From positions 2,040 through 66,039 of the forward strand of contig JBFHES010000001.1 of NCBI GenBank assembly GCA_041584015.1: a stretch of DNA of 64,000 nucleotides. The letters run 5' to 3'. Numbering within the stretch: position 1 is the first letter of the stretch; every line of letters starts with the position of its first letter. The translations under genes and the position numbers were made by a program. The notes under the pieces were generated by a model that did not search any database, was not told the DNA's origin, and saw only the letters and a program-made list of their open reading frames with translations. This document shows positions 9,603 through 27,710 of the stretch, piece by piece. Source of the stretch: Bacteroidales bacterium (GTDB taxonomy: Bacteria; Bacteroidota; Bacteroidia; Bacteroidales; M50B96).

Positions 9603-12600
9603 TTAATAGATTATTGCAATCACACCGGTTTCAGTATGCCTCACATTATGATTATCAACATACTCCAACATCCAGGTATATACATCCTGTTTAACCAAAG
9701 TCCCACCTGACGACTTGCCGTCCCATGCATGATCATAATCGAATGTTTCGAAAATTAAACCACCCCACCGGTCGTATACCCATAAATGGATACTTTTAGG
9801 TTTAGGCGCTATTAGCGGCATAAACAAATTATTGCCATAAGAGCTAAAAGGGTTCAAAGCTGTTGGTGCATAAAATACGGCTATTTCAAAGACATTAACA
9901 TCACGGTAGCTCGTATCAATACAACCCTCAGGACTTGTTACGATAAGTTGAACACGATAATCATTTGGTTGCGGATACGTATGACTTACATATTGATCGG
10001 TACTTTGTAAACATGTTCCATCACCAAAGGACCAAGTTGCAGAACTCATTTCAGTTGATATATTTTCAAAAAACAGCGTAGGATCCATCATCCCTACAGA
10101 AATCTCATCACTTATAAAATTAGCTGATGGCTTTGGATAAACGTGCACATCGCTTCGATAAACAGAACTAAAATCGCAGCCATAGATATTATTAATTAAC
10201 AGCTTTACTGAATAGTCTCCAGGACTATTCCAGGTTACTTCCGGATAATCCAGATAAGAATAATACAAGCCATCAGACTTTTCAATGGTCCATTCAAATT
10301 CAGATCCTATTTCGTTATTATAATCGTCGAGCATTACTGTATAAGGTGCGCATCCCATATAGCTATCAGTGCCCATCGGATTATCAGGCGCATCTATAAC
10401 ATTTACCGGAATGTAAGCTATAGAAGAATAGGATTGACAAGCATCCATAACCTGAACTGCTATTAACTGTGAGCTATCCGGCTGCATCATATAAGGAAGC
10501 GTTACCAATTCATCATTTACAAAATAGGAGTATCCATAACCAATTCCTCCAATAGCTTCAGCAAAAACACTTATTGGGTCGAACGGACAAATACTATCGG
10601 GCACGTTGGTTAAAGGATTTATACCAAGAGCCGGATCGGTAAAAACATTTACCATCTCTTCAGGCGATTGACACCCATTGGCATCTATTGCTACCAGAAC
10701 CAAGGAGGTATTATGGCTTGGCACGAATGCAATCCATTGGTTCGTATCAATTCCTGCCCAAATATAATCATACGGCGTAGCACCTCCACTTGCCACAGCC
10801 ATTAGCAAAACCGTATCTCCTGAACAAACGACCGTATCTTCTGAAATCTGAATATTTAAAACAGGCGGCTCCGAAATACTATCAACAAGAACAAAAGAGC
10901 AGTTATTCTCATCAACGAAGGTTAAAGAATAGCTACCAGTTGGCAAGTTAACTATTGACGCTATGGTATCATTGGTGCTCCATAGATAAGTATAATCACC
11001 TGTGCCCCCTGAGGGATTAACTTCAATTGAACCACTACTATCATTTGCGCATAAAACATGCGTTAATATAGCATTGGCTGCCAGTGGTGCTGGCTGTTCA
11101 AGCATTAAGGAAGTATCGGTTTTACAGATGCTATCGTAAAAAATTGCAACATTATAAAGACCAGAACTAAGGTTATTAATAACCAAACTTGTATCTCCGG
11201 TTGACCAAATACATGATGCATCCAAAGAACCAGAAAACGAAACTTCTAAAGATCCATTCGCATCTCCAAAGCACAATGGCACATCGGAAAGAATATTTAA
11301 TTGTGGCTCCGCAGGAAAAGTAATATTCTCTTGATGAACAGAGGAACTGCATCCCGGATACGAAACCTCTAATGTAAGAATGGTATCTCCTGCAACATAA
11401 GAATTAATGTAAACTGAACCCGTTGTGGAGCTGGAGCCCTGCGCAAAATTCGCAAAACCTATATCCCAGTTGAATTCGGGCGTGTAGCCAATAGGAAACA
11501 TTCCGGTATACTCTACAAAAATGGTATCGCCAAAACAATTTGGAGGATCCACGACAAAATCTGCATCCAGCTCAATTGGTATAATAACTACCGAATCAGA
11601 ATAAGTACACCCTTGTATCGTAGCTTGAACATAAATCATTGTTGAATCCTGTGGTGCTAGAGTGATGCTCGAGGAACTTTCTCCTGTTGACCATTCGATG
11701 ACGGTAAATGGATAATTTACCGATAGTTCAAGAGTATCTCCTAGGCAAACAACAGTATCATTAAAAGGTATAAGCTCAACTTGATCATAAACCGTTACTT
11801 GTTCTGTCATGTCAAAAGATACCGTATCAACATATAGCGTTAGGTTAACCAAAAATGCACCTTCTGATGAGAAATCATGCAAAACATTAAAACCACTAAC
11901 AACATTGTTTACACCGGACAGTGTATCTGAAAAGTTCCATATGGCTGAATCGATATTTACTGAATCTAAAAGAAAGAACTCCCATGGGCTGCCAAAACAA
12001 CTTGGGTTAAACGAAAACTCTGCAGAAAAAAAGCTGGATATAAATGTTGGAAAACCCAACAGACAAGATCCGTTGAGAGTTAATGCAACATCCTGGTAAG
12101 CACATGCTGTAGATGGAAGATCAGGGTATTGAATTCGACCGATCGTAACATCTGTTTGCTTTGCAACATAGATCATACCATCCGGACCTAACTGAAGAGC
12201 GCCAATTCCCCAATTTGAAACTGCTACTCCAACTGCTTGAATGGAATTATTAATGACCTGCTGATTATTAGAACTAATATCCCATTGATAAATTGAATCT
12301 GAGTTACTATACCAACATGCTCCATAAAGCAATTGTTCCGATGGAGAAAACTCAACACCGTATGCACCATTCCATGGCGAATTAATTAGGCGCTGATTGC
12401 TAATAACTCCGGTTGTTCGGTTAAAGCTAAACAATTCAAAATAGCTATTGCCAACTACCGCCTGTGCTAGTTTTGAACCGCCGGGTGAAAACTTCAGATA
12501 ACCTCTTTTGTTTGTAAAAGATCCGATTATGGCATTACCAACGTTTGACACCACAGGATTTAATGTTTGAACCCCGGCTGGAGTGACTAAATAGGTTACA

Positions 12601-13175
12601 AATGCATCGTTACCCCAGTCATGGCCTACTACCCAAAAATCGATTCCATTAATATGTTGAGTAACCGCAATCTTTTCGCAGCATGGGTTTATTAGCTGAA
12701 TGTTCTTCTCGCCAAGATCAACATCTCCAAACCCTCCGTTCGCGGTCATATCAACCTTAGAATACGTCATGCCGTTCGCACCATAAATTTCATCAACAGC
12801 AAATATGTAATAAGTATTGGGGTCGAGTGGTTTAGGAACAATTACACCAGATTGCGTTGATGATGGATTACCCAAGAGCTGACCACCAGGAGAACTGAAC
12901 ATGCAACCTGGCATTAATGTATGGCTTGCATCCCACACAAGCATTCCATCAGTATAAAACAATAGATTTCCATTTTCATCAGAAATTGTTGCAACTCCTT
13001 CCAGCGTATTAACCATTGATGGTGCAATATTAGCAGGCGACGGTTGTCCTGGTGCATTGCAAAAACTTATACCACAATTGGCACCAAAATACCAATTAGA
13101 AGCCTCATTACATTGCGCCTGAATCTGCTTATTGAAAATTAGAATGAGTAATATGCCCGTTAGTATATTTTTCAT
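9603..13175 (-). CDS. Large secreted multidomain surface protein with T9SS type B (gliding-motility-associated) C-terminal sorting domain
   Basis: The signal peptide starts at M13 (MKNILTGILLILIFNKQIQAQ), so the start is set at 13175. It has SprB-type Cys-framed repeats (CANDSSGSIEVNPSGGTGDYTYLWSTND...GSYSLTFVDENNC) and a PKD-like module (WSFGDGT...HTY..PNDYRVQLIVTSPEGC). The C-terminus is type B-like (LWVYDRWGGLIFETFDYDHAWDGKSSGG...DVYTWMLEY). Confidence 0.8.
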   Translation of the reverse strand: MKNILTGILLILIFNKQIQAQCNEASNWYFGANCGISFCNAPGQPSPANIAPSMVNTLEGVATISDENGNLLFYTDGMLVWDASHTLMPGCMFSSPGGQLLGNPSSTQSGVIVPKPLDPNTYYIFAVDEIYGANGMTYSKVDMTANGGFGDVDLGEKNIQLINPCCEKIAVTQHINGIDFWVVGHDWGNDAFVTYLVTPAGVQTLNPVVSNVGNAIIGSFTNKRGYLKFSPGGSKLAQAVVGNSYFELFSFNRTTGVISNQRLINSPWNGAYGVEFSPSEQLLYGACWYSNSDSIYQWDISSNNQQVINNSIQAVGVAVSNWGIGALQLGPDGMIYVAKQTDVTIGRIQYPDLPSTACAYQDVALTLNGSCLLGFPTFISSFFSAEFSFNPSCFGSPWEFFLLDSVNIDSAIWNFSDTLSGVNNVVSGFNVLHDFSSEGAFLVNLTLYVDTVSFDMTEQVTVYDQVELIPFNDTVVCLGDTLELSVNYPFTVIEWSTGESSSSITLAPQDSTMIYVQATIQGCTYSDSVVIIPIELDADFVVDPPNCFGDTIFVEYTGMFPIGYTPEFNWDIGFANFAQGSSSTTGSVYINSYVAGDTILTLEVSYPGCSSSVHQENITFPAEPQLNILSDVPLCFGDANGSLEVSFSGSLDASCIWSTGDTSLVINNLSSGLYNVAIFYDSICKTDTSLMLEQPAPLAANAILTHVLCANDSSGSIEVNPSGGTGDYTYLWSTNDTIASIVNLPTGSYSLTFVDENNCSFVLVDSISEPPVLNIQISEDTVVCSGDTVLLMAVASGGATPYDYIWAGIDTNQWIAFVPSHNTSLVLVAIDANGCQSPEEMVNVFTDPALGINPLTNVPDSICPFDPISVFAEAIGGIGYGYSYFVNDELVTLPYMMQPDSSQLIAVQVMDACQSYSSIAYIPVNVIDAPDNPMGTDSYMGCAPYTVMLDDYNNEIGSEFEWTIEKSDGLYYSYLDYPEVTWNSPGDYSVKLLINNIYGCDFSSVYRSDVHVYPKPSANFISDEISVGMMDPTLFFENISTEMSSATWSFGDGTCLQSTDQYVSHTYPQPNDYRVQLIVTSPEGCIDTSYRDVNVFEIAVFYAPTALNPFSSYGNNLFMPLIAPKPKSIHLWVYDRWGGLIFETFDYDHAWDGKSSGGTLVKQDVYTWMLEYVDNHNVRHTETGVIAIIY

Positions 13176-13478
13176 CTTTATTATTGAAGCATTCTTGCTG
13201 CCAAATGGCAACTTTGCAAATCAAAAATTGCTTAAGTGTTGTTCAGTTATGTTAATCTGTATTGATAAGACCTCAGATAGTTGTAATGGTTGCTTTGCAT
13301 TTGGTATTATTTTTAAACTCCGGCAAGAATACATTTAACACACACATGATTCAGAGAATTTCTTCAGTCATAACAGGCCAATTGAATCTCAAACACTTAA
13401 ATTAGCAAACGTTGCTACAGTACTTTCAAGGTTCCATCTTTCATTACTTTTTATTATCTTTCCGTTAAATAGAACTTA

Positions 13479-14120
13479 ATGATGAAAGATGATCCACAAA
13501 TTGCTAACTATCTAAAATCGCTACTTGAAGGTGATCGGGTTTTAAGCAGTAAGCTTATTAACGCCTACCTGGATGCTAGTGGCAACTTAAAGGACTTATA
13601 TGAGAAGATTGTAAAAACCGCTCTTTATGAAGTTGGCTCCTTGTGGGAATCCAACAAAATTGGAGTGGCAGAAGAACACCTGGCTACGGCAATTGTGGAG
13701 AGTAACTTAAACGAATTACTTGAACGCATAGTAAGCGAATATCAAAGCAACAAGAAAGTTGTACTTGCCTGCACTGAGAACGAGATGCATCAGGTAGGTA
13801 TAAAAATGGTTGGCGATGTATTTGAGTTGAATGGCTGGAATACTTTTTTTCTGGGTAGCAGTGTGCCCCGGTTTGAACTCATCAAATTTATAAAAGAAAA
13901 ACAACCTGATATACTTGCGATATCGTTAAGCATCTATTTTAATTATTCCACATTTTTACAAATGTTAAGTGAGTTAAGAAAGCATTTCCCAACGCTTCCA
14001 ATTGTAGCAGGCGGACAAGCATTTAACCACATCAAGCCGGAAATACTTAGCTCACATGATCATCTGCATTTCTTTACAGACTTATATGAGCTTGAAACTT
14101 TTATTAAATCCAAAACCTAA
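13479..14120 (+). CDS. Stand-alone cobalamin (B12)-binding protein, CarH-like photosensor module without a DNA-binding domain
   Basis: 213 aa. The N-terminal helical bundle carries W-x9-E-H (LWESNKIGVAEEHLAT). The Rossmann-type B12-binding domain has the lower-ligand His motif ENEMHQVG (DxHxxG-like), then GWNTFFLGSSVP and ILAISLS. Confidence 0.8.
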   Translation: MMKDDPQIANYLKSLLEGDRVLSSKLINAYLDASGNLKDLYEKIVKTALYEVGSLWESNKIGVAEEHLATAIVESNLNELLERIVSEYQSNKKVVLACTENEMHQVGIKMVGDVFELNGWNTFFLGSSVPRFELIKFIKEKQPDILAISLSIYFNYSTFLQMLSELRKHFPTLPIVAGGQAFNHIKPEILSSHDHLHFFTDLYELETFIKSKT

Positions 14121-14131
14121 TTAGCTAAGCC

Positions 14132-14593
14132 ATGAACAAGGAACAATTATTAAAAACAGCTGCACAACTGCAACAAGTAAGCGAAAAAGCCGCAAATGAA
14201 TTTACAGAGAAAAGAGAATCATTGGTGTCATTAATGAATACCAGGATGGAACAACGCATGGATATTATTCAGATAGTTGGAGAAGACAACCTTTTAATGA
14301 TGAAAGACAACCATGCCAATCACGCAAGATTTCTCGAATCAATTTTCATTAATCATGTACCTGAAGTATTAGTAGATACAATCTTATGGGTATTTCGTGC
14401 CTATCAATCAAGAGGATTTGATTCAACCTATTGGTCGGCTCAGCTTAACTCCTGGTTACAAATTTATAAAAACGAACTAAGTAAAGAATGTTATCGTGAA
14501 ATCAGTCCTTACTATCATTGGATGCAGATTAATATTCCAGTATTTTCTCAGCTTGCAATTGAAGAATTAAGCACAGGAAAATCAGCTCATTAA
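14132..14593 (+). CDS. Hypothetical all-helical, His/Trp-rich 153-aa protein (operon partner of the B12 module)
   Basis: The ORF starts 11 nt after the B12-module gene and ends 10 nt before the kinase gene. I recognise no motif. The composition suggests a helical bundle (KDNHANHARFLESIFINHVPEVLVDTILWVFRAYQSRG). Confidence 0.6.
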   Translation: MNKEQLLKTAAQLQQVSEKAANEFTEKRESLVSLMNTRMEQRMDIIQIVGEDNLLMMKDNHANHARFLESIFINHVPEVLVDTILWVFRAYQSRGFDSTYWSAQLNSWLQIYKNELSKECYREISPYYHWMQINIPVFSQLAIEELSTGKSAH

Positions 14594-14603
14594 AACAAAA
14601 TTA

Positions 14604-15842
14604 ATGATAAGTAACTACGAGACATTGTTTAAGGAGTTTCTGTTGACTGTTATCGCAGAAGGCAAAACGGTTGGTATTGGTGTATTATCACATAGCGGCA
14701 ACCTACTTTACACAAACAAAGCACTTTCTTTCTTTCTGAAAAAGGATGAACCAAAACCCAATAGATTTGTAAATCCAACGATAGAAAACATACTTACTAT
14801 GGATGGTGACGGTGAAGTTTTTAATGGAATACTTACCATCGGCAACTTGAATGACGAGCACTTTGCATTGCAAACCAGCATATACAGAAATAAGGAAAAC
14901 ATTATTATAATAGCAGAGGCCAACGTACCACATCTTTTTAAAGAAAATAGTAAAATGAGCATGCTTAATCAGGAAGTAAACAACCTGCAACGCCAACTCA
15001 TTATCGAAAAAAAAAATCTACAGCGAACATTAACAGAGCTAAAGGAAACGCAAGATCAACTCATTCATTCTGAAAAGATGAATGCTCTGGGTAATCTTGT
15101 AGCTGGCGTTGCGCATGAAATAAACAATCCACTCGCATTTGTTAATAGCAATTTACACTCTCTTAAAAGAGATACAAAAGAAATTCTCGACACATTTCAG
15201 GAATTAACTAAACTTGCAGCGAAATCTGAAGACCCTCAACTATCTGAGAAATCACAACTTATTTTAAAGGATAAAGATTTAGAATTTATGATTGATGATG
15301 TTTATGATATGCTAGAAGAATCCAATGTTGGCGTTGAAAGAGTTAAAACAATTGTTGAAGACTTACGCAAATTCTCCAGACTCGACGAAGCGGACTCAAA
15401 GAATATTAATCTGGTTGAAGACATTCAATCAACCCTAACGATACTAAAATCGGACATTGCCAGTAAAAACATTACGCTCGAGGTACAGAGCCCTGAAACA
15501 TTATTCGTTAATTGTTATCCACGACAGCTGAACCAGGCACTATTTAATATTCTCTTAAATGCCATACAAGCGGTTAACAGCAACGGACGAATAAAACTAA
15601 AAATTAGTAGCAGCAATAACACACTACTAATTAACATTGAAGATAACGGAAAGGGTATTGATGAAGAAATTGCAAAACGCATATTCGATCCTTTCTTTAC
15701 AACTAAAGCGGTAGGAGAAGGAACAGGATTAGGATTAAGCATTGCCTATAAGATTATTCACAACCTACATCAGGGAACAATATCGTTCAATTCTGTAATA
15801 GGAAAAGGAACACGTTTTCAGATTAGTATCCCACTACATTAA
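14604..15842 (+). CDS. Soluble sensor histidine kinase (PAS-like N-domain, coiled coil, HisKA, HATPase_c)
   Basis: No hydrophobic TM segment. H-box GVAHEINNPLAF, N-box NILLNAIQAV, G1 IEDNGKGID, G2 GEGTGLGLSIA. Confidence 0.9.
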   Translation: MISNYETLFKEFLLTVIAEGKTVGIGVLSHSGNLLYTNKALSFFLKKDEPKPNRFVNPTIENILTMDGDGEVFNGILTIGNLNDEHFALQTSIYRNKENIIIIAEANVPHLFKENSKMSMLNQEVNNLQRQLIIEKKNLQRTLTELKETQDQLIHSEKMNALGNLVAGVAHEINNPLAFVNSNLHSLKRDTKEILDTFQELTKLAAKSEDPQLSEKSQLILKDKDLEFMIDDVYDMLEESNVGVERVKTIVEDLRKFSRLDEADSKNINLVEDIQSTLTILKSDIASKNITLEVQSPETLFVNCYPRQLNQALFNILLNAIQAVNSNGRIKLKISSSNNTLLINIEDNGKGIDEEIAKRIFDPFFTTKAVGEGTGLGLSIAYKIIHNLHQGTISFNSVIGKGTRFQISIPLH

Positions 15843-15859
15843 TAGAAAAGAAGACCAAT

Positions 15860-17035
15860 ATGGAAAAGAACTTACTTATAATAGATGATGAGGTTGAAAT
15901 AACGAAATCGTTAGCACGACAGTTCAGAAGAGTTTACAATACTTTCACAGCAACATCAGCTAAAGATGCCTTGAAAATAATGGAGGAGGAAAGAATTCAA
16001 GTAATCATTTCCGACCAACGTATGCCTGATACTACGGGTGTCGATTTCTTTTCGCAAATTAAGGATAGGTTTCCAAATGCGTTAAAACTAATTCTAACAG
16101 GATATTCAGATATTGATGCTGTGATTGAAGCCATAAACGAAGGACAAGTGTATCGTTACATTACGAAGCCCTGGAACCCAACAGAGTTAGATTCTATTGT
16201 TAAGGCAGCATACGAGAAAGCAGAACTTGTTGAAAAGAATAAAATACTGATGGAGGACCTTAGTGCTGCTAATAAATTATTGGAAGAAAAAGTAAAAAAA
16301 CGAACAGAAGAGCTTGAACTAAAGAACGAAAGTTTGGAGCATCTAAATAAGGAAAAGAATAAATATCTTGGAATTGTTGCCCACGACTTAAGAAACCCAA
16401 TTGCCACATCTATTATGTTTGCCGGACTTCTAACTGATGATTATGATAAGTGGACCAAGGAAGAACATCTAGAATTTGCGGGCGAAATTCATGAAAACTG
16501 CACCTTCTCTTTAAAGCTTATGGAGAACCTTCTTGATGTCTCTAAAATTGAAGCTGGCATTTTTGATCTGGAACTTGAGCAAACCGAGTACATTAGTTTT
16601 ATTGAGAAAGTCGTTCGGGAAACAATCTATTTAGCCAAACAGAAATCACAGGACATTCGTATATCTCACACTATCAATTCTGTTCATGTTCAAATTGATA
16701 AAAACAAAATAAAGCAGGTAGTAACCAACTTGCTCACAAATGCCATAAAATACTCGGCAAAGGGAACCGAGATAATTGTTAAGATTAGCACTGACGATTA
16801 TAATTTAACCACCAGCATTATTGATCATGGCCAAGGAATACCGAGCGAAGAGCTTGATGGAATTTTTAATGCTTATAAAGTCAGTAGCGTAAAAGCCACA
16901 GATGACGAGAAGTCAACCGGTCTAGGATTAGCAATTGTAAACAAAATAGTTAAAGCTCATCATGGACAATGTAGCGTGAGCAGCACAGTTGGTAAAGGTT
17001 CCAAATTTTTATTCAATCTACCACTGCCACTATAA
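15860..17035 (+). CDS. Hybrid response-regulator receiver / histidine kinase (REC-HisKA-HATPase_c)
   Basis: The REC domain has LLIIDDE, the phospho-acceptor context VIISDQRMPDTTG, and YITKPW. After a coiled coil comes H-box VAHDLRNPI, N-box NLLTNAIKYS, IIDHGQGIP and STGLGLAIV. Confidence 0.9.
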   Translation: MEKNLLIIDDEVEITKSLARQFRRVYNTFTATSAKDALKIMEEERIQVIISDQRMPDTTGVDFFSQIKDRFPNALKLILTGYSDIDAVIEAINEGQVYRYITKPWNPTELDSIVKAAYEKAELVEKNKILMEDLSAANKLLEEKVKKRTEELELKNESLEHLNKEKNKYLGIVAHDLRNPIATSIMFAGLLTDDYDKWTKEEHLEFAGEIHENCTFSLKLMENLLDVSKIEAGIFDLELEQTEYISFIEKVVRETIYLAKQKSQDIRISHTINSVHVQIDKNKIKQVVTNLLTNAIKYSAKGTEIIVKISTDDYNLTTSIIDHGQGIPSEELDGIFNAYKVSSVKATDDEKSTGLGLAIVNKIVKAHHGQCSVSSTVGKGSKFLFNLPLPL

Positions 17036-17110
17036 TTAGAAATATCCTCAGTTTTGTAGATTTGCCTCTCAAGAACCTAAACTATTTATTGGCACCAACC
17101 ATTTAATTCT

Positions 17111-19186
17111 CTATTTCTCAACAATAACAAACTCGGTACGACGATTAAGCGCTCGGCCCTGTTCGTTGTCATTTGAAGCAACAGGTTTATTAGCACCAAA
17201 TCCCTTGGAGCTCATTCGGCTGGCATCAATGCCTTGAGAACCTAAATAATCTGCTACAGCCGCTGCTCTTCGTTTCGATAGATCCATGTTGGCAGCTGCA
17301 TTACCTATATTATCCGTGTGCCCCTGAATAGCTATTCTTAGCGACGCATTTTCGCTCATAAACTCAATAAAATTATCGAGTACCACTTTCGATGCATTAT
17401 CAAACTCGGCAGAATTGGTTGCAAATAGAATGTTATTTAATTTAACAGTTGTACCTACCTCAATAGGTTTCACCTCAACTTCTACCTCAACTGGTTCATC
17501 TATCTCGGCAAGCTCGTCCGGAACAAAATAACGGGATGTAAATGCATAGTCCTTCTTTTTTACGGTCATGATGAATTCATCCTTTTCTTCGAAAGCAATT
17601 GCCACCGCATAACGCCCCGTCATCTTATCAACCATGCCTTCAATTACCCGCTTACCGTCTGCACTTTTCATTTCTACCTTGGCATCGGTAATCTCTGCGC
17701 CTTGCTCATCCAGCAATTGCCCTTTTACAAAAAGCACTTTCTCTGGTCGGGCTTCCTCGTAAAGATCGAACGAATAAATATCATATCCACCACTTCCATC
17801 CAATTTATTCGAAGAGAGAAATGCCTTCTTTCCGTCGGTACTTACCATAAATCCAATATCATCGTCAGGTGTATTTATTGGATAACCAATATTCACAGGT
17901 TCACTCCAACTATCATCTTCGTTTTGCCTTGAATAATAAATATCGTACCCGCCAACACCTGTTCTTCCGTTTGATGAAAAGTACAATGTTTTACTATCTG
18001 AATGCAAGAAAGGCGATTTCTCGTCACGATCTGAATTTATCTTATGATCCATGCTAATTGCTTTGGACCACACACCATCATTACCTAACTTAGACTGGTA
18101 GATATCAGTAGTCAAATCTCCCAAATGTGCTCTTCTCAGGCTAACAAAATAAAGATCCTTGCCATCGGCCGAAACAGTAGGCTGACTTTCCCAGGTACAT
18201 TTACCATTAACATTTGGCCCAAGATTCTTAAACTCCGACCAAGCGCCATCGGTATAATCAGATGAATAAATATCACAATTATTATAAGGTTGCCCCTGAC
18301 ATTCGGTGAACTCGCAGATGGTCATAAAAATGTGGTTGTTATCTATCGTAATTGCTGCTGCTCCCTGCTTTAGTCCCTGATTAAACGGATAGGGCAAACT
18401 CTCGCCTGAGGAGAAAGATAACTCGCCTTCGCCATCAACCCGCTGACTAATTTTAAAGTGCTCGAATCGCTTCTGAATAGTCGTATATCGATCGTTCGCA
18501 TCAAAGCGATGTGTATAAAAAAGGAAAGCTCCATCAGGGCTTATCATAGGTAAAAACTCGTCGGTTTTAGTAGAAACACCTTGAACAAGCACCGGACTAA
18601 ACGGTACGGGATTGTTCATCAAATCAAGGTATTCATTCATTTCCTTGATAGAGTTCTGAGCATATTCATTTTCATCCTTATTTCTATTCCCGTTCTTTTC
18701 AATAAAAAGTTGGAAATATTTTGTCGCCTGCTCGGATTCTGCTTTATCCAACATACCATTCTCAGTATCTTGAGCACGCATATAATGATATTGTCCTACG
18801 TAAAAATAGGAGAAGTAATAATCGAAGGCATCGCAATTTTCAATCACACGGAGATAGTAATTCTTTGCAGTTTGCAAATACTTTGTTCTGCCAGCCATTC
18901 CTTTTTTCCAGTTACTCTCTGCTAAGATGTAAAGCAGCTCAGCAAAATCAGGTTCAAGTTCAAGCACCTCAAGTAACATGGCAGTACTTTCCTTATGTTT
19001 TGTTCGAGGCATCTTAAGTGCCTTGTCGTATAGTTTGATGGCCTTTTTGCTAGTCATCTCTGTACAACCAAAGTCTTCCTGTGCAATTAAACCCATTGGT
19101 TTAAAAAGGAACAAAACCAGACTGAAGACTACCAGCAATTTCAGCTTATTATATAAATTCATTCTCCTCATTGTTCTGCGAACCAT
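17111..19186 (-). CDS. OmpA-family outer-membrane/peptidoglycan-associated protein with TPR, TolB-like beta-propeller repeats and carboxypeptidase-regulatory-like domain
   Basis: The C-terminus has OmpA_C motifs (ILFATNSAEF, IQGHTDNIGNAAANMDLSKRRAAAVADYL, NRRTEFVIV). The central part has repeated 'SPDG..LYF.S.R.GG.GGYDIY' propeller-like units. An alternative start is M9 at 19162 (MNLYNKLKLLVVFSL). Confidence 0.85.
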   Translation of the reverse strand: MVRRTMRRMNLYNKLKLLVVFSLVLFLFKPMGLIAQEDFGCTEMTSKKAIKLYDKALKMPRTKHKESTAMLLEVLELEPDFAELLYILAESNWKKGMAGRTKYLQTAKNYYLRVIENCDAFDYYFSYFYVGQYHYMRAQDTENGMLDKAESEQATKYFQLFIEKNGNRNKDENEYAQNSIKEMNEYLDLMNNPVPFSPVLVQGVSTKTDEFLPMISPDGAFLFYTHRFDANDRYTTIQKRFEHFKISQRVDGEGELSFSSGESLPYPFNQGLKQGAAAITIDNNHIFMTICEFTECQGQPYNNCDIYSSDYTDGAWSEFKNLGPNVNGKCTWESQPTVSADGKDLYFVSLRRAHLGDLTTDIYQSKLGNDGVWSKAISMDHKINSDRDEKSPFLHSDSKTLYFSSNGRTGVGGYDIYYSRQNEDDSWSEPVNIGYPINTPDDDIGFMVSTDGKKAFLSSNKLDGSGGYDIYSFDLYEEARPEKVLFVKGQLLDEQGAEITDAKVEMKSADGKRVIEGMVDKMTGRYAVAIAFEEKDEFIMTVKKKDYAFTSRYFVPDELAEIDEPVEVEVEVKPIEVGTTVKLNNILFATNSAEFDNASKVVLDNFIEFMSENASLRIAIQGHTDNIGNAAANMDLSKRRAAAVADYLGSQGIDASRMSSKGFGANKPVASNDNEQGRALNRRTEFVIVEK

Positions 19187-25250: not shown

Positions 25251-27710
25251 ATGGCTACTTATCTGTTTCAAGAAATATCAAACGCTATTAAAGGCGAATA
25301 TCACGGCACATCCAATCCTCCTATATCAAATTTAATTACCGATAGTAGAACGTATTTTAACGCTGAGGAATCAGTATTTTTTGCCATAAAAGGAATTCGA
25401 CATGACGGTCATCATCACCTGAAAGAATTGTTTCAGAAAGGCATTCGAAATTTTATCATCTCGAACCGCGACATAGTTTTTGATGAATTTCCGGAATGTA
25501 ACTTTGCTGTTGTGCAGAACACAACAGATGCATTGCAAGCATTGGCTGCCTGGCATCGGAAACAGTTCGATATTCCTGTAATTGGCATTACGGGTAGTAA
25601 CGGAAAAACCATCATTAAGGAATGGCTATTTCATTTACTTGAAGATGAGAAGAAAACCATTCGTAGTCCGAAGAGTTACAACTCCCAAATAGGAGTACCG
25701 CTATCTGTTTGGATGATGGAAGAGGAACATGAACTGGCGATATTTGAGGCAGGTATTTCTCAGGCCGGAGAGATGCAGAAACTTAAATCGATAATTGCTC
25801 CAACCATAGGCATCTTTTCAAATATTGGCGAACCACATCAAGCAAACTTTATTGATTACAAGCACAAAATATCGGAAAAGCTAAAGCTGTTTGAAAGCTG
25901 CGACATACTTATTTACAGTCGCGACTACAGTTTAATTGAAAGCCAAATACGATCTAATTACAATTTCGATAACACAAAACTATTTTGTTGGTCGCGTAAG
26001 TTCCCATCAGATTTGTTCATATCACGAATTGAGAAGCAAGATGGACATTCGAAGCTTTATGCAAAATATCAAAACAAAGAAATTAGCATTGACATTCCGT
26101 TTATAGATGAAGCCTCGATAGAAAATGCAATCCATTGCTGGGCACTACTGCTTTTGTCGTTGGATAATGAAAGCATTAGTAATAAGATGAAAGACCTGGC
26201 ACCTATTGCCATGCGTCTGGAACTAAAAGAAGGCATAAACGATTGTACCATCATTAATGACAGTTATAACTCTGACCTTGGTTCGCTTAGTATCGCCCTC
26301 GATTTTTTAAATCAACAACATCAGCATAAAAAAAAGACACTAATAATAAGCGACATACTGCAAAGTGGTAAAGATGAAACCGGGCTGTACAAAGAAGTAT
26401 CTGATCTGGTACATGGAAAAAACATTACCCGTGTAATTGGCATTGGTGAGGCCATTAGTCGCAACATGAATTTCTTTAAAACAGAAACATCGAGCTTTAA
26501 AACAACCAACGAGTTTCTTGAGAAGTTAAACAAAGAAGGTTTTAAAGATGAGGCTATTTTGCTCAAAGGTTCCAGAACCTTTGAGTTTGAACGCATCTCA
26601 AATAGTTTGCAACACAAAGCGCACCGAACAGTTTTGGAGATTAATTTAAACGGGATTGTCAATAATCTGAATTATTTTAAATCTTTGCTAAAGCCTGAAA
26701 CCAAAGTAATGATCATGGTAAAGGCGTTCTCCTATGGAAGCGGCACTTACGAAATAGCCAACATCCTTCAGTATAATAAAGTCGATTATCTGGGAGTAGC
26801 ATTTGCCGATGAAGGGGTTGCACTCCGAAAGGCGGGCATTTCAATTCCTATTTTGGTAATGAATCCGGAAGAGCAGAGCTTCGAGTCGATGATCGAGTAC
26901 AACCTGGAACCTGAGATCTATTCATTCAGAACATTAAATTTCTTTAGTGAAGCTGTTAAGCGTTTTGGCATTGACCTGTACCCTGTTCATTTAAAAATGG
27001 AAACTGGTATGAATCGTCTTGGCTTTGAAGAAAGCGACCTTCCTAAATTAATTGAGGAACTAAAGAATATGAATTACCTGCGCGTTAGCTCAATATTCTC
27101 GCATTTGGCTGCCAGCGATGATGCTGTTCACGATGGCTTTACAGAAAAGCAATTCGCCAAATTTGATGGCATGAGCAAGCAAATCCAGGAGCAATTCAAA
27201 TACAAAATATACCGTCACCTGCTAAATTCTGCCGGTGTCGAACGTTTCCCAAATTATCAGTTAGACATGGTACGTCTGGGTATCGGACTCTATGGTATCA
27301 GTCATGCAGGAAATAAGCTTACGAATGTGAGTACACTCAAAAGTAAGATTTCGCAAATCAAACATATTCGGAAAGGCGAAACAATTGGTTATAGCCGACG
27401 TGGTGTAACCGAGCGTGATTCAAGAATAGCAATTGTTCCCATTGGATACTCCGACGGACTTAGTCGTGCGCTTAGTAACGGTGTTGGAAAAGTGTGGATC
27501 AATAACAAGAAGGTTCCAATAATTGGTAATATTTGCATGGATATGTGCATGATTGACATTAGCGATCTGGCAGCCAGCGAAGGAGACGAAGTGATTATAT
27601 TTGGAGCACAAATTCCACTTACAGAAATGGCTTCCACCTTAAAAACCATTCCTTACGAAATAATGACAGGAATTTCTAAGCGTGTAAAAAGAGTTTATAT
27701 TTACGAATAA
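25251..27710 (+). CDS. murF-alr: Bifunctional UDP-MurNAc-tripeptide--D-Ala-D-Ala ligase (MurF) / alanine racemase (Alr) fusion
   Basis: The N-terminal Mur ligase has the P-loop GITGSNGKTIIKEW. The C-terminal ~370 aa are alanine racemase, with the PLP-Lys context MVKAFSYGSG, then RLGIGLYG, GYSDG and CMDMCMIDI. Confidence 0.9.
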   Translation: MATYLFQEISNAIKGEYHGTSNPPISNLITDSRTYFNAEESVFFAIKGIRHDGHHHLKELFQKGIRNFIISNRDIVFDEFPECNFAVVQNTTDALQALAAWHRKQFDIPVIGITGSNGKTIIKEWLFHLLEDEKKTIRSPKSYNSQIGVPLSVWMMEEEHELAIFEAGISQAGEMQKLKSIIAPTIGIFSNIGEPHQANFIDYKHKISEKLKLFESCDILIYSRDYSLIESQIRSNYNFDNTKLFCWSRKFPSDLFISRIEKQDGHSKLYAKYQNKEISIDIPFIDEASIENAIHCWALLLLSLDNESISNKMKDLAPIAMRLELKEGINDCTIINDSYNSDLGSLSIALDFLNQQHQHKKKTLIISDILQSGKDETGLYKEVSDLVHGKNITRVIGIGEAISRNMNFFKTETSSFKTTNEFLEKLNKEGFKDEAILLKGSRTFEFERISNSLQHKAHRTVLEINLNGIVNNLNYFKSLLKPETKVMIMVKAFSYGSGTYEIANILQYNKVDYLGVAFADEGVALRKAGISIPILVMNPEEQSFESMIEYNLEPEIYSFRTLNFFSEAVKRFGIDLYPVHLKMETGMNRLGFEESDLPKLIEELKNMNYLRVSSIFSHLAASDDAVHDGFTEKQFAKFDGMSKQIQEQFKYKIYRHLLNSAGVERFPNYQLDMVRLGIGLYGISHAGNKLTNVSTLKSKISQIKHIRKGETIGYSRRGVTERDSRIAIVPIGYSDGLSRALSNGVGKVWINNKKVPIIGNICMDMCMIDISDLAASEGDEVIIFGAQIPLTEMASTLKTIPYEIMTGISKRVKRVYIYE

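Follow-up and report, generated by a model that had tools for sequence, protein, structure and literature searches.

A putative stand-alone photoglobin encoded between a cobalamin-binding protein and a histidine kinase in Bacteroidales

Described photoglobin systems and the Bacteroidales locus

Photoglobins were described as a third class of non-haem globins that is related to phycocyanin and usually fused to the domains B12-binding_2 and B12-binding, and stand-alone photoglobins 'almost always' adjoin B12-binding and two-component genes (Schneider, Tan, Li, Fisher & Zhang, 2021; PMC8717448). The fused photoglobins are photocobilins, in which adenosylcobalamin and biliverdin are bound next to each other and green or red light switches a diguanylate cyclase (Zhang et al., 2024; PMC10979010). 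Split pairs of a globin and a B12 protein were found in Myxococcota, where BBAG-2 binds biliverdin (Rockwell, Martin & Lagarias, 2023, PMC10151467; PMC13446030), and BBAG-2 and the photoglobins form one lineage, which is the sister group of the phycobiliproteins (PMC10151467). Here, a window of 64,000 nucleotides from a Bacteroidales bacterium (contig JBFHES010000001.1, positions 2,040 to 66,039) was analyzed, in which an open reading frame (ORF) of 153 amino acids lies between the genes of a B12-binding protein and a histidine kinase. A first-pass annotation of this DNA had considered the ORF unassignable. Its fold, the fusions of its homologues and its synteny place it instead with the photoglobins of PMC8717448. 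Because its distant homologues are fused to B12 domains, because it is syntenic with a B12 protein and a kinase, and because the nearest relatives of its B12 neighbor are photocobilins, we consider it rather likely that the 153-amino-acid protein is a stand-alone photoglobin (phycobiliprotein/photoglobin lineage, non-haem), most likely forming, with its B12 neighbor, a split sensor of the photocobilin type in which it is the second subunit.

The window corresponds exactly to the published theme of a stand-alone photoglobin beside a B12-binding gene. As in the described photoglobins, the globin fold is most like the phycocyanin type and lacks the haem ligands, the globin is fused to or located beside the domains B12-binding_2 and B12-binding in either order, and the genes belong to two-component operons, often with several kinases. 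Whereas the described photoglobins carry Cys/Ser/Thr46, Asp49 and Leu80 ('CXQD' in PMC10151467), the window protein has Met57, Asn60 and Tyr91. The Bacteroidales clade also differs in having its own M-x-D-N-H-x-N-H signature; no Pfam or NCBIfam model describes it and all members are annotated as hypothetical. Operons of this type have already been described computationally and their kind is experimentally almost untouched; the non-routine element is the altered pocket (Met/Asn/Tyr plus a His pair). A literature search found no paper on the Bacteroidota clade or on a kinase-coupled split system.

The closest solved relatives of the B12 module are the photocobilins SasPcob and AbPcob/AbDPcob (Protein Data Bank (PDB) entries 8J2W, 8J2X, and 8J2Y), with which it shares the Wx9EH motif and the His lower ligand. 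The globin aligns gaplessly with the photocobilin globin over residues 53-115, including W86 (corresponding to W296 in SasPcob) and the R-G turn, and by analogy the same logic would be expected, with two tetrapyrrole sites side by side controlling the output. However, photocobilins are single polypeptides, whereas here two ORFs are found in different frames, and their output is a fused GGDEF domain or none, whereas here it is a separate kinase. Moreover, the biliverdin-binding Asp270 is replaced by Asn in the window (and by His in AbPcob, a poor biliverdin binder), and the globin part is only marginally similar in sequence (E about 1). In the BBAG-2 pairs, compared here by their description only, the bilin-type globin and the B12-binding protein are likewise separate, but genes for haem oxygenase and pre-PcyA bilin reductase are linked to these pairs, which also carry a Cys motif, RGMC; the window locus has no linked bilin-synthesis gene and no such Cys (S-R-G-F-D, residues 93-97). 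The phycobiliproteins (allophycocyanin, phycocyanin, and smURFP) are the best structural matches (TM-score up to 0.68, root-mean-square deviation (rmsd) 2.4 Å) and share a Tyr at the position equivalent to the proximal His. In contrast to them, the window globin lacks the Cys of the CXRD motif for covalent bilin attachment, is only 13-17% identical in sequence and occurs in a signaling context in heterotrophic Bacteroidales rather than in the light harvesting of cyanobacteria and algae. Finally, the partner has a CarH-type cobalamin-binding domain as in CarH and AerR and, like AerR, no DNA-binding domain, so that its action has to depend on contacts with other proteins. Whereas a globin and a histidine kinase are the obligate partners here, CarH and AerR do without a globin and have DNA or CrtJ/PpsR as their targets. 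Nothing specifically supported the earlier suggestion that the 153-amino-acid protein is an AerR-style antagonist.

Fold, domain fusions and synteny of the globin

A search with the 153-amino-acid protein returned 634 homologues at E < 1e-3, nearly all of 153 amino acids, and an exhaustive phmmer search gave 463 clusters at 50% identity. These same-length homologues and clusters, together with the conserved synteny, show that the ORF is a genuine gene and did not arise by chance. Translation confirmed its extent from ATG to TAA (Table 1), and the coordinates confirmed its position between the B12 protein and kinase genes. It is the second of four tightly packed genes on the same strand, separated by gaps of 11, 10, and 17 nucleotides, and thus begins 11 nucleotides after the B12-binding gene and ends 10 nucleotides before the kinase gene. 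The three peptide strings quoted by the first-pass annotation were found at residues 60-78 (NHANHARFLESIFINHVPE), 100-112 (YWSAQLNSWLQIY), and 127-138 (YYHWMQINIPVF), and the hydrophilic N-terminus agrees with its statement that a signal peptide is lacking. Its description as His/Trp-rich was only mildly appropriate (5 His and 4 Trp in 153 amino acids), but H61, H64, W86, W101, W108, and W130 rank with the best-conserved residues of this protein family. Searches of Pfam, NCBIfam and PDB sequences with the single protein gave no significant match; matches to a V-ATPase C-terminal domain (E 0.006-0.09) and to haemagglutinin (E 1.5) were treated as chance.

An AlphaFold2 model of the protein was built from 32 orthologues. 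The model (mean predicted local distance difference test score (pLDDT) 90.5, predicted TM-score 0.85) has eight helices and no strands and adopts the eight-helix globin fold, as the first-pass reading of a globin-sized, all-helical protein had anticipated. A Foldseek search of the PDB with this model returned globins only. The best matches were subunits of allophycocyanin from phycobilisome cores and smURFP, which derives from allophycocyanin (TM-score 0.62-0.68, rmsd 2.4-3.0 Å, probability 1.00), whereas haem globins and globin-coupled sensors fitted less well (TM-score 0.5-0.6, rmsd 4-7 Å). A profile of 93 family sequences, searched against 177,635 PDB sequences, gave individually weak matches (E 0.5-1.2), but the top four places were taken by smURFP, a chain of the phycocyanin family and, in the two SasPcob photocobilin entries (8J2W/8J2X), the globin domain at the C-terminus. 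Alignment by hhalign to a SasPcob fragment and to SasPcob plus AbPcob gave the same gapless register (P = 2.6e-4 and 4.9e-4, respectively; short fragments only). A 63-amino-acid SasPcob globin fragment found no match in a set of 5.8 billion proteins.

Other folds were considered and rejected. Hemerythrin and four-helix bundles, which have an up-down arrangement and a di-iron site of the form H-x-x-x-E/H, are excluded by the eight-helix globin fold, and no such fold match was obtained. An RsbR-type non-haem globin was rejected on the grounds that neither the protein nor the operon has a STAS domain, that Tyr and not Arg occupies the proximal position, and that no RsbR structure is among the top 50 fold matches.

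Distant homologues (E 1e-16 to 1e-24) of 365-398 amino acids consist of an N-terminal globin followed by the domains B12-binding_2 and B12-binding, and other fused homologues show the order B12-globin or globin-REC (response-regulator receiver domain). Fusions were present in all ten of the longer homologues scanned, nine with B12 domains and one with REC. The B12 parts of the fused homologues carry Wx9EH and NExHExG, and six globin residues (N60, H64, W86, Y91, W108, and Y128) are invariant in both fused and free globins. A partial 258-amino-acid protein (P0142) from a Candidatus Omnitrophota metagenome-assembled genome (MAG) has its globin fused directly to a receiver domain, with no B12 domain in that polypeptide. 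In a scan that took one genome per species, globin relatives were found in 241 genomes, nearly all from Bacteroidales or Marinilabiliales; cultured carriers include Marinifilum breve, Roseimarinus sediminis, and Puteibacter caeruleilacunae. The M-x-D-N-H-x-N-H clade occurs in at least 241 species-level genomes, mostly of anaerobic Bacteroidales, and B12-fused forms occur in other phyla.

The gene neighborhood was compared across 82 related loci, with testable loci as denominators. The genome scan used an alignment of close Bacteroidales orthologues (A1), the wide alignment (A2) being too divergent, so that the roughly 80 loci represent close relatives only. An orthologue of the B12 protein was encoded within 3 kb on the same strand in 76/79 loci and directly upstream of the globin in 72/79 (median gap 21.5 nucleotides). 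A kinase was found within 3 kb in 71 of 74 loci, with an N-terminal domain homologous to that of the window kinase in 67/74, and a downstream REC-kinase (REC domain at least 50% identical) in about half of the loci (32/65). When 706 flanking ORFs from 85 loci were clustered, only these three partner families recurred and nothing else was common to more than five loci; the cassette is hence a mobile unit whose flanks vary. The co-occurrence with Wx9EH modules and kinases, proposed as a check in the first-pass annotation, was clearly observed, and no housekeeping family was matched. Its suggestion of a second cofactor-binding sensor or an adaptor broadly fits the phycobiliprotein-like globin fold, the fusions to CarH-type B12 domains and the near-obligate adjacency to B12 protein and kinase.

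Some loci deviate from the usual arrangement. The order is B12 protein-kinase-globin instead of B12 protein-globin-kinase in three loci (L073, L075, and L076). In locus L083 (11739-14615), a gene for a 479-amino-acid DDE-type transposase lies between the REC part (179 amino acids) and the HisKA/HATPase part (219 amino acids) of the fourth gene, which is an insertion-sequence disruption of the REC-kinase. In locus L084 (4292-10004), the B12 gene was called as two overlapping ORFs (B12_2, 99 amino acids; B12, 126 amino acids), which points to a frameshift or to faulty assembly; a 1679-amino-acid REC and multi-PAS protein, of a family that adjoins the cassette in five loci, precedes it there.

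The likely partner of the globin is the B12 protein, which contains both B12 domains (PF02607, 1e-12; PF02310, 1.5e-16; Pfam) and no DNA-binding or other output domain. Among solved structures it comes closest to the photocobilins 8J2W/8J2X (6e-19) and 8J2Y (4e-17), with methionine synthase and CarH behind at 1e-8. The fourth-best solved relative (1.3e-14) is a 327-amino-acid 'putative cobalamin binding protein' (8JBS/8JBT) with about 108 extra N-terminal residues, to which the globin profile gave no match. The Wx9EH motif is the adenosyl-pocket signature of light-sensing CarH-type domains and was kept in 78/80 partner B12 proteins of the related loci, and [DE]xHxxG was kept in 80/80; GxxW and GxxxP are also present in the window protein. 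B12 domains can sense ligand or redox state instead of light, as in AerR and AppA-SCHIC. The B12/globin pair might not be a light sensor at all but signal, in habitats that are dark and anoxic, how much corrinoid is available or in which redox state cobalt is, with the kinases tuning corrinoid-dependent metabolism. We regard this reading as very unlikely. Many carriers are, by their record titles, Bacteroidales MAGs from sediments, springs or digesters, and one fused homologue has a weak AppA_SCHIC match; however, the near-universal retention of Wx9EH and the photoreceptor nature of the nearest solved relatives argue against it, as does the lack of any operon-linked gene for the transport or salvage of corrinoids and of a cobalamin riboswitch (no Rfam family was found in 12500-17500). 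A promoter and terminator scan of the operon remained at chance level.

Pocket residues and the second ligand of the globin

The pocket register was derived from HMMER and hhalign alignments to SasPcob and AbPcob. Two checks of the numbering agreed: the SasPcob chain index plus 6 gives the numbering of the paper (W55 to W61, W290 to W296), and the N60 column contains His in AbPcob, as PMC10979010 states. Relative to the column of the biliverdin-binding Asp, N60 of the window occupies position 0 (corresponding to Asp270 in SasPcob, His in AbPcob, and Asp49 in photoglobins), M57 position -3 (Thr in SasPcob, Cys in canonical photoglobins), W86 position +26 (Trp296 in SasPcob, Trp in AbPcob) and Y91 position +31 (Leu in SasPcob and AbPcob, Tyr in phycocyanin). 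Y91 also aligned to Y113 of 9i1r_I. Among 93 family members, N60 is the most conserved polar residue (84), ahead of D59 (48); N63 is kept in 79, M57 in 74, H64 in 65, H61 in 64, W86 in 88, and Y91 in 86. N60, H64, and W86 are invariant in an alignment of free and fused forms (A3). Together with N60, the likewise conserved N53, M57, H61, N63, H64, and F67 form one stripe along the third helix, and the motif M-x-[DENQT]-N-H-x-N-H was found in 81/83 locus orthologues. In SasPcob, Trp296 forms a hydrogen bond to the corrin ring and packs on ring D of biliverdin (PMC10979010). The S-R-G-F turn at residues 93-96 (14408-14419) resembles A-R-G-V of SasPcob and recalls RGMC of BBAG-2, with Asp where the Cys would fall, and is mentioned as a lead only.

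Several observations weigh against the assignment as a photocobilin-type subunit. All three predicted bilin-pocket positions differ from canonical photoglobins, with Met for Cys/Thr, Asn for Asp, and Tyr for Leu, and in AbPcob the change from Asp to His cut the biliverdin occupancy to about 20% (PMC10979010). The direct sequence link to the solved photocobilins is weak (hidden Markov model E = 1.1 against 8J2W; hhalign probability 32-42%, short fragments). No haem oxygenase or bilin reductase gene was found near any of the 85 loci, and many hosts come, as judged from isolate names, from anoxic and dark habitats, where O2-dependent biliverdin synthesis and light are questionable. Bacteroidetes are nowhere mentioned in the main text of PMC8717448, which covers 5,975 photoglobins, and a fold search with the model of the kinase N-terminal domain gave only noise at TM-scores of 0.2-0.3 (GFP, ATP-synthase epsilon). 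With regard to the pocket, the conserved Asp is present in 'the majority' of photoglobins (PMC8717448), and given this wording and the His of the accepted member AbPcob, it is typical but not obligatory for photoglobins. The second ligand of the globin is nevertheless uncertain because of the replacements by N60, M57, and Y91.

The same residues bear on whether the globin has a second ligand at all. It could be a chromophore-less cap or adaptor that shields the edge of the corrin and bridges the B12 protein to the kinase, so that sensing would proceed via B12 alone. Consistent with this are N60 in place of the biliverdin-binding Asp, the lack of a linked bilin-synthesis gene in the 85 loci and the conservation of the corrin-contact residue W86, which exceeds that of most pocket positions. 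However, the conserved polar stripe (N53, M57, N60, N63/H64, F67) is continuous and faces the pocket together with Y91, Y100, and W101, a pattern that is seen more typically with bound ligands than with mere packing; an Asn could still hydrogen-bond pyrrole NH groups, and the source of a bilin need not be operon-linked. A cap without ligand is plausible in view of the Asn, but we regard it as unlikely.

The absence of haem-ligating histidines bears on a further alternative, namely that the globin binds haem or another tetrapyrrole and, in the manner of a globin-coupled sensor, signals O2, NO or redox state to the kinase, the B12 protein providing an independent second input. Following the equivalences of PMC8717448, Y91 occupies the proximal and M57 the distal position, so that both canonical ligands are missing, and a haem globin-coupled sensor was rejected as a family assignment on the grounds that Tyr replaces the proximal His (F8) in 86/93 members and that no haem globin is among the profile matches. 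The fold search does also return globin-coupled sensors and bacterial haemoglobins (2w31, 4zvb, 9dsf; TM-score 0.55-0.6), H61 and H64, which follow the equivalent of the distal His by one and two helical turns, are invariant or almost invariant, a proximal Tyr could in principle ligate iron, and O2 or redox sensing would be useful to the largely anaerobic hosts. Against this, phycobiliproteins fit the model better by both rmsd and TM-score, all the PDB profile matches are bilin globins, and obligate fusion or adjacency to B12 domains is a signature of photoglobins and not a feature of globin-coupled sensors. A haem- or redox-sensing globin appears very unlikely, the His pair being what still speaks for it.

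More possible, though still doubtful, is that the Bacteroidales clade represents a functionally distinct photoglobin branch, in which three pocket residues have changed and a His pair has become fixed and which uses a ligand other than biliverdin or a different chemistry. Candidate ligands might be haem, a second corrinoid, or a linear tetrapyrrole that is made anaerobically, for instance anaerobilin; another possibility is that, once photolysis has occurred, a globin His coordinates cobalt in trans as its upper ligand. If true, anaerobes that are not phototrophic would have a new B12 sensor chemistry that is shared between two subunits and connected to a kinase cascade. A further His is found at the C-terminus: a disordered tail (D/E)APLSAH-COOH is conserved in the close Bacteroidales orthologues of alignment A1, where P149, S151, and H153 are at least 90% conserved, with pLDDT below 50 for residues 150-153. 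The tail of the window protein itself reads TGKSAH (residues 148-153, 14576-14593), and the tail is not kept in the wider family. The terminal His on this flexible tail could act near the cobalamin site as a trans ligand or a docking motif.

Kinase cascade, flanking genes and biological meaning

The 412-amino-acid kinase consists of an N-terminal domain of about 105 amino acids, followed by a coiled coil, HisKA, and HATPase_c. Its first 150 or so residues (14604-15050) had no Pfam match, while weak PAS matches (Pfam) were obtained for 8 of 49 orthologues of the N-terminal domain. An AlphaFold2 model of this domain, built from a 6-sequence alignment, reached a pLDDT of 68.8 and showed a b-b-a-a-b-b-b topology plus a long helix. 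On the basis of the weak matches and this low-confidence topology, the domain may be a divergent PAS domain, and the kinase is the probable receiver of the B12/globin signal.

For the putative split photocobilin-type sensor, the following route can be proposed. As homology suggests, the globin would dock via W86 on the adjacent CarH-type B12 protein beside the corrin ring, and its polar pocket (M57, N60, H61, N63, H64, Y91) would probably accommodate a second, tetrapyrrole-like ligand, for which a bilin would be the default assumption. By analogy to SasPcob, AbDPcob, and CarH, light would break the Co-C bond of adenosylcobalamin, green light acting directly and longer wavelengths via the second chromophore if bound; the four-helix cap would move, and the oligomeric state or the surface of the B12/globin complex would change. 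Judging from gene order, the complex may act on the co-conserved N-terminal domain of the kinase and alter its autophosphorylation, and the phosphoryl signal may then pass to the REC-gated second kinase and on to an output encoded outside the operon.

Table 1. Positions of the cassette genes, their motifs and two other genes in the window.
Feature	Position	Strand	Remark
Stand-alone cobalamin-binding protein, 213 amino acids, B12-binding_2 four-helix cap + B12-binding Rossmann domain	13479..14120	+	
Wx9EH motif, W56...E66-H67	13644..13679	+	Regular expression on the translation; aligned with the W-E-H motif of SasPcob
E102-x-H104-x-x-G, predicted lower axial His ligand to cobalt (base-off/His-on)	13782..13799	+	His aligned to that of 8J2W
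Putative stand-alone photoglobin-type globin (non-haem, phycobiliprotein-like), 153 amino acids	14132..14593	+	ATG start, TAA stop
Core motif M57-K-D-N60-H61-A-N63-H64, long third helix	14300..14323	+	In place of the CXQD/CXRD bilin-binding motif
W86	14387..14389	+	Aligned gaplessly with Trp296 of SasPcob and the Trp of 8J2Y; three alignments
Y91, +31 from N60	14402..14404	+	Position of photoglobin L80, phycocyanin Y115 and the proximal His of haem globins
Soluble histidine kinase, 412 amino acids, HisKA + HATPase_c	14604..15842	+	Pfam
Hybrid REC-HisKA-HATPase_c protein, 391 amino acids, second kinase gated by receiver domain	15860..17035	+	Pfam
1202-amino-acid protein, SprB repeat + PKD + CHU_C (type IX secretion) domains	9603-13211	-	Divergent from the operon; TTG start; not conserved beside the cassette elsewhere
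819-amino-acid single ORF, Mur ligase middle + C-terminal domains + complete alanine racemase	25251-27710	+	Looks like a MurF-like/Alr fusion

The flanks of the cassette in the window are unrelated to it and are not conserved beside it elsewhere. They include genes for an LpxC-FabZ fusion, hexapeptide acyltransferases (LpxA/LpxD-like), RecA, and an S9 peptidase, as well as the SprB/PKD cargo protein of type IX secretion (Table 1) and an OmpA/PD40 protein.

Taken as a whole, the gene pair reads as a split photocobilin-type sensor that feeds a kinase cascade. The assignment names, and gives a testable role to, a family listed as hypothetical in hundreds of Bacteroidales genomes, and it would extend photocobilin-type B12 and globin sensing to Bacteroidota. 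The system comes here in its simplest form, with separable parts, namely a soluble kinase and two small proteins that are soluble as well, which suits the biochemistry of communication between a B12 photoreceptor and a histidine kinase and may be of use for green/red optogenetic two-component switches. The change from Asp to Asn in the pocket provides a natural test of whether the second chromophore of the globin is needed at all.

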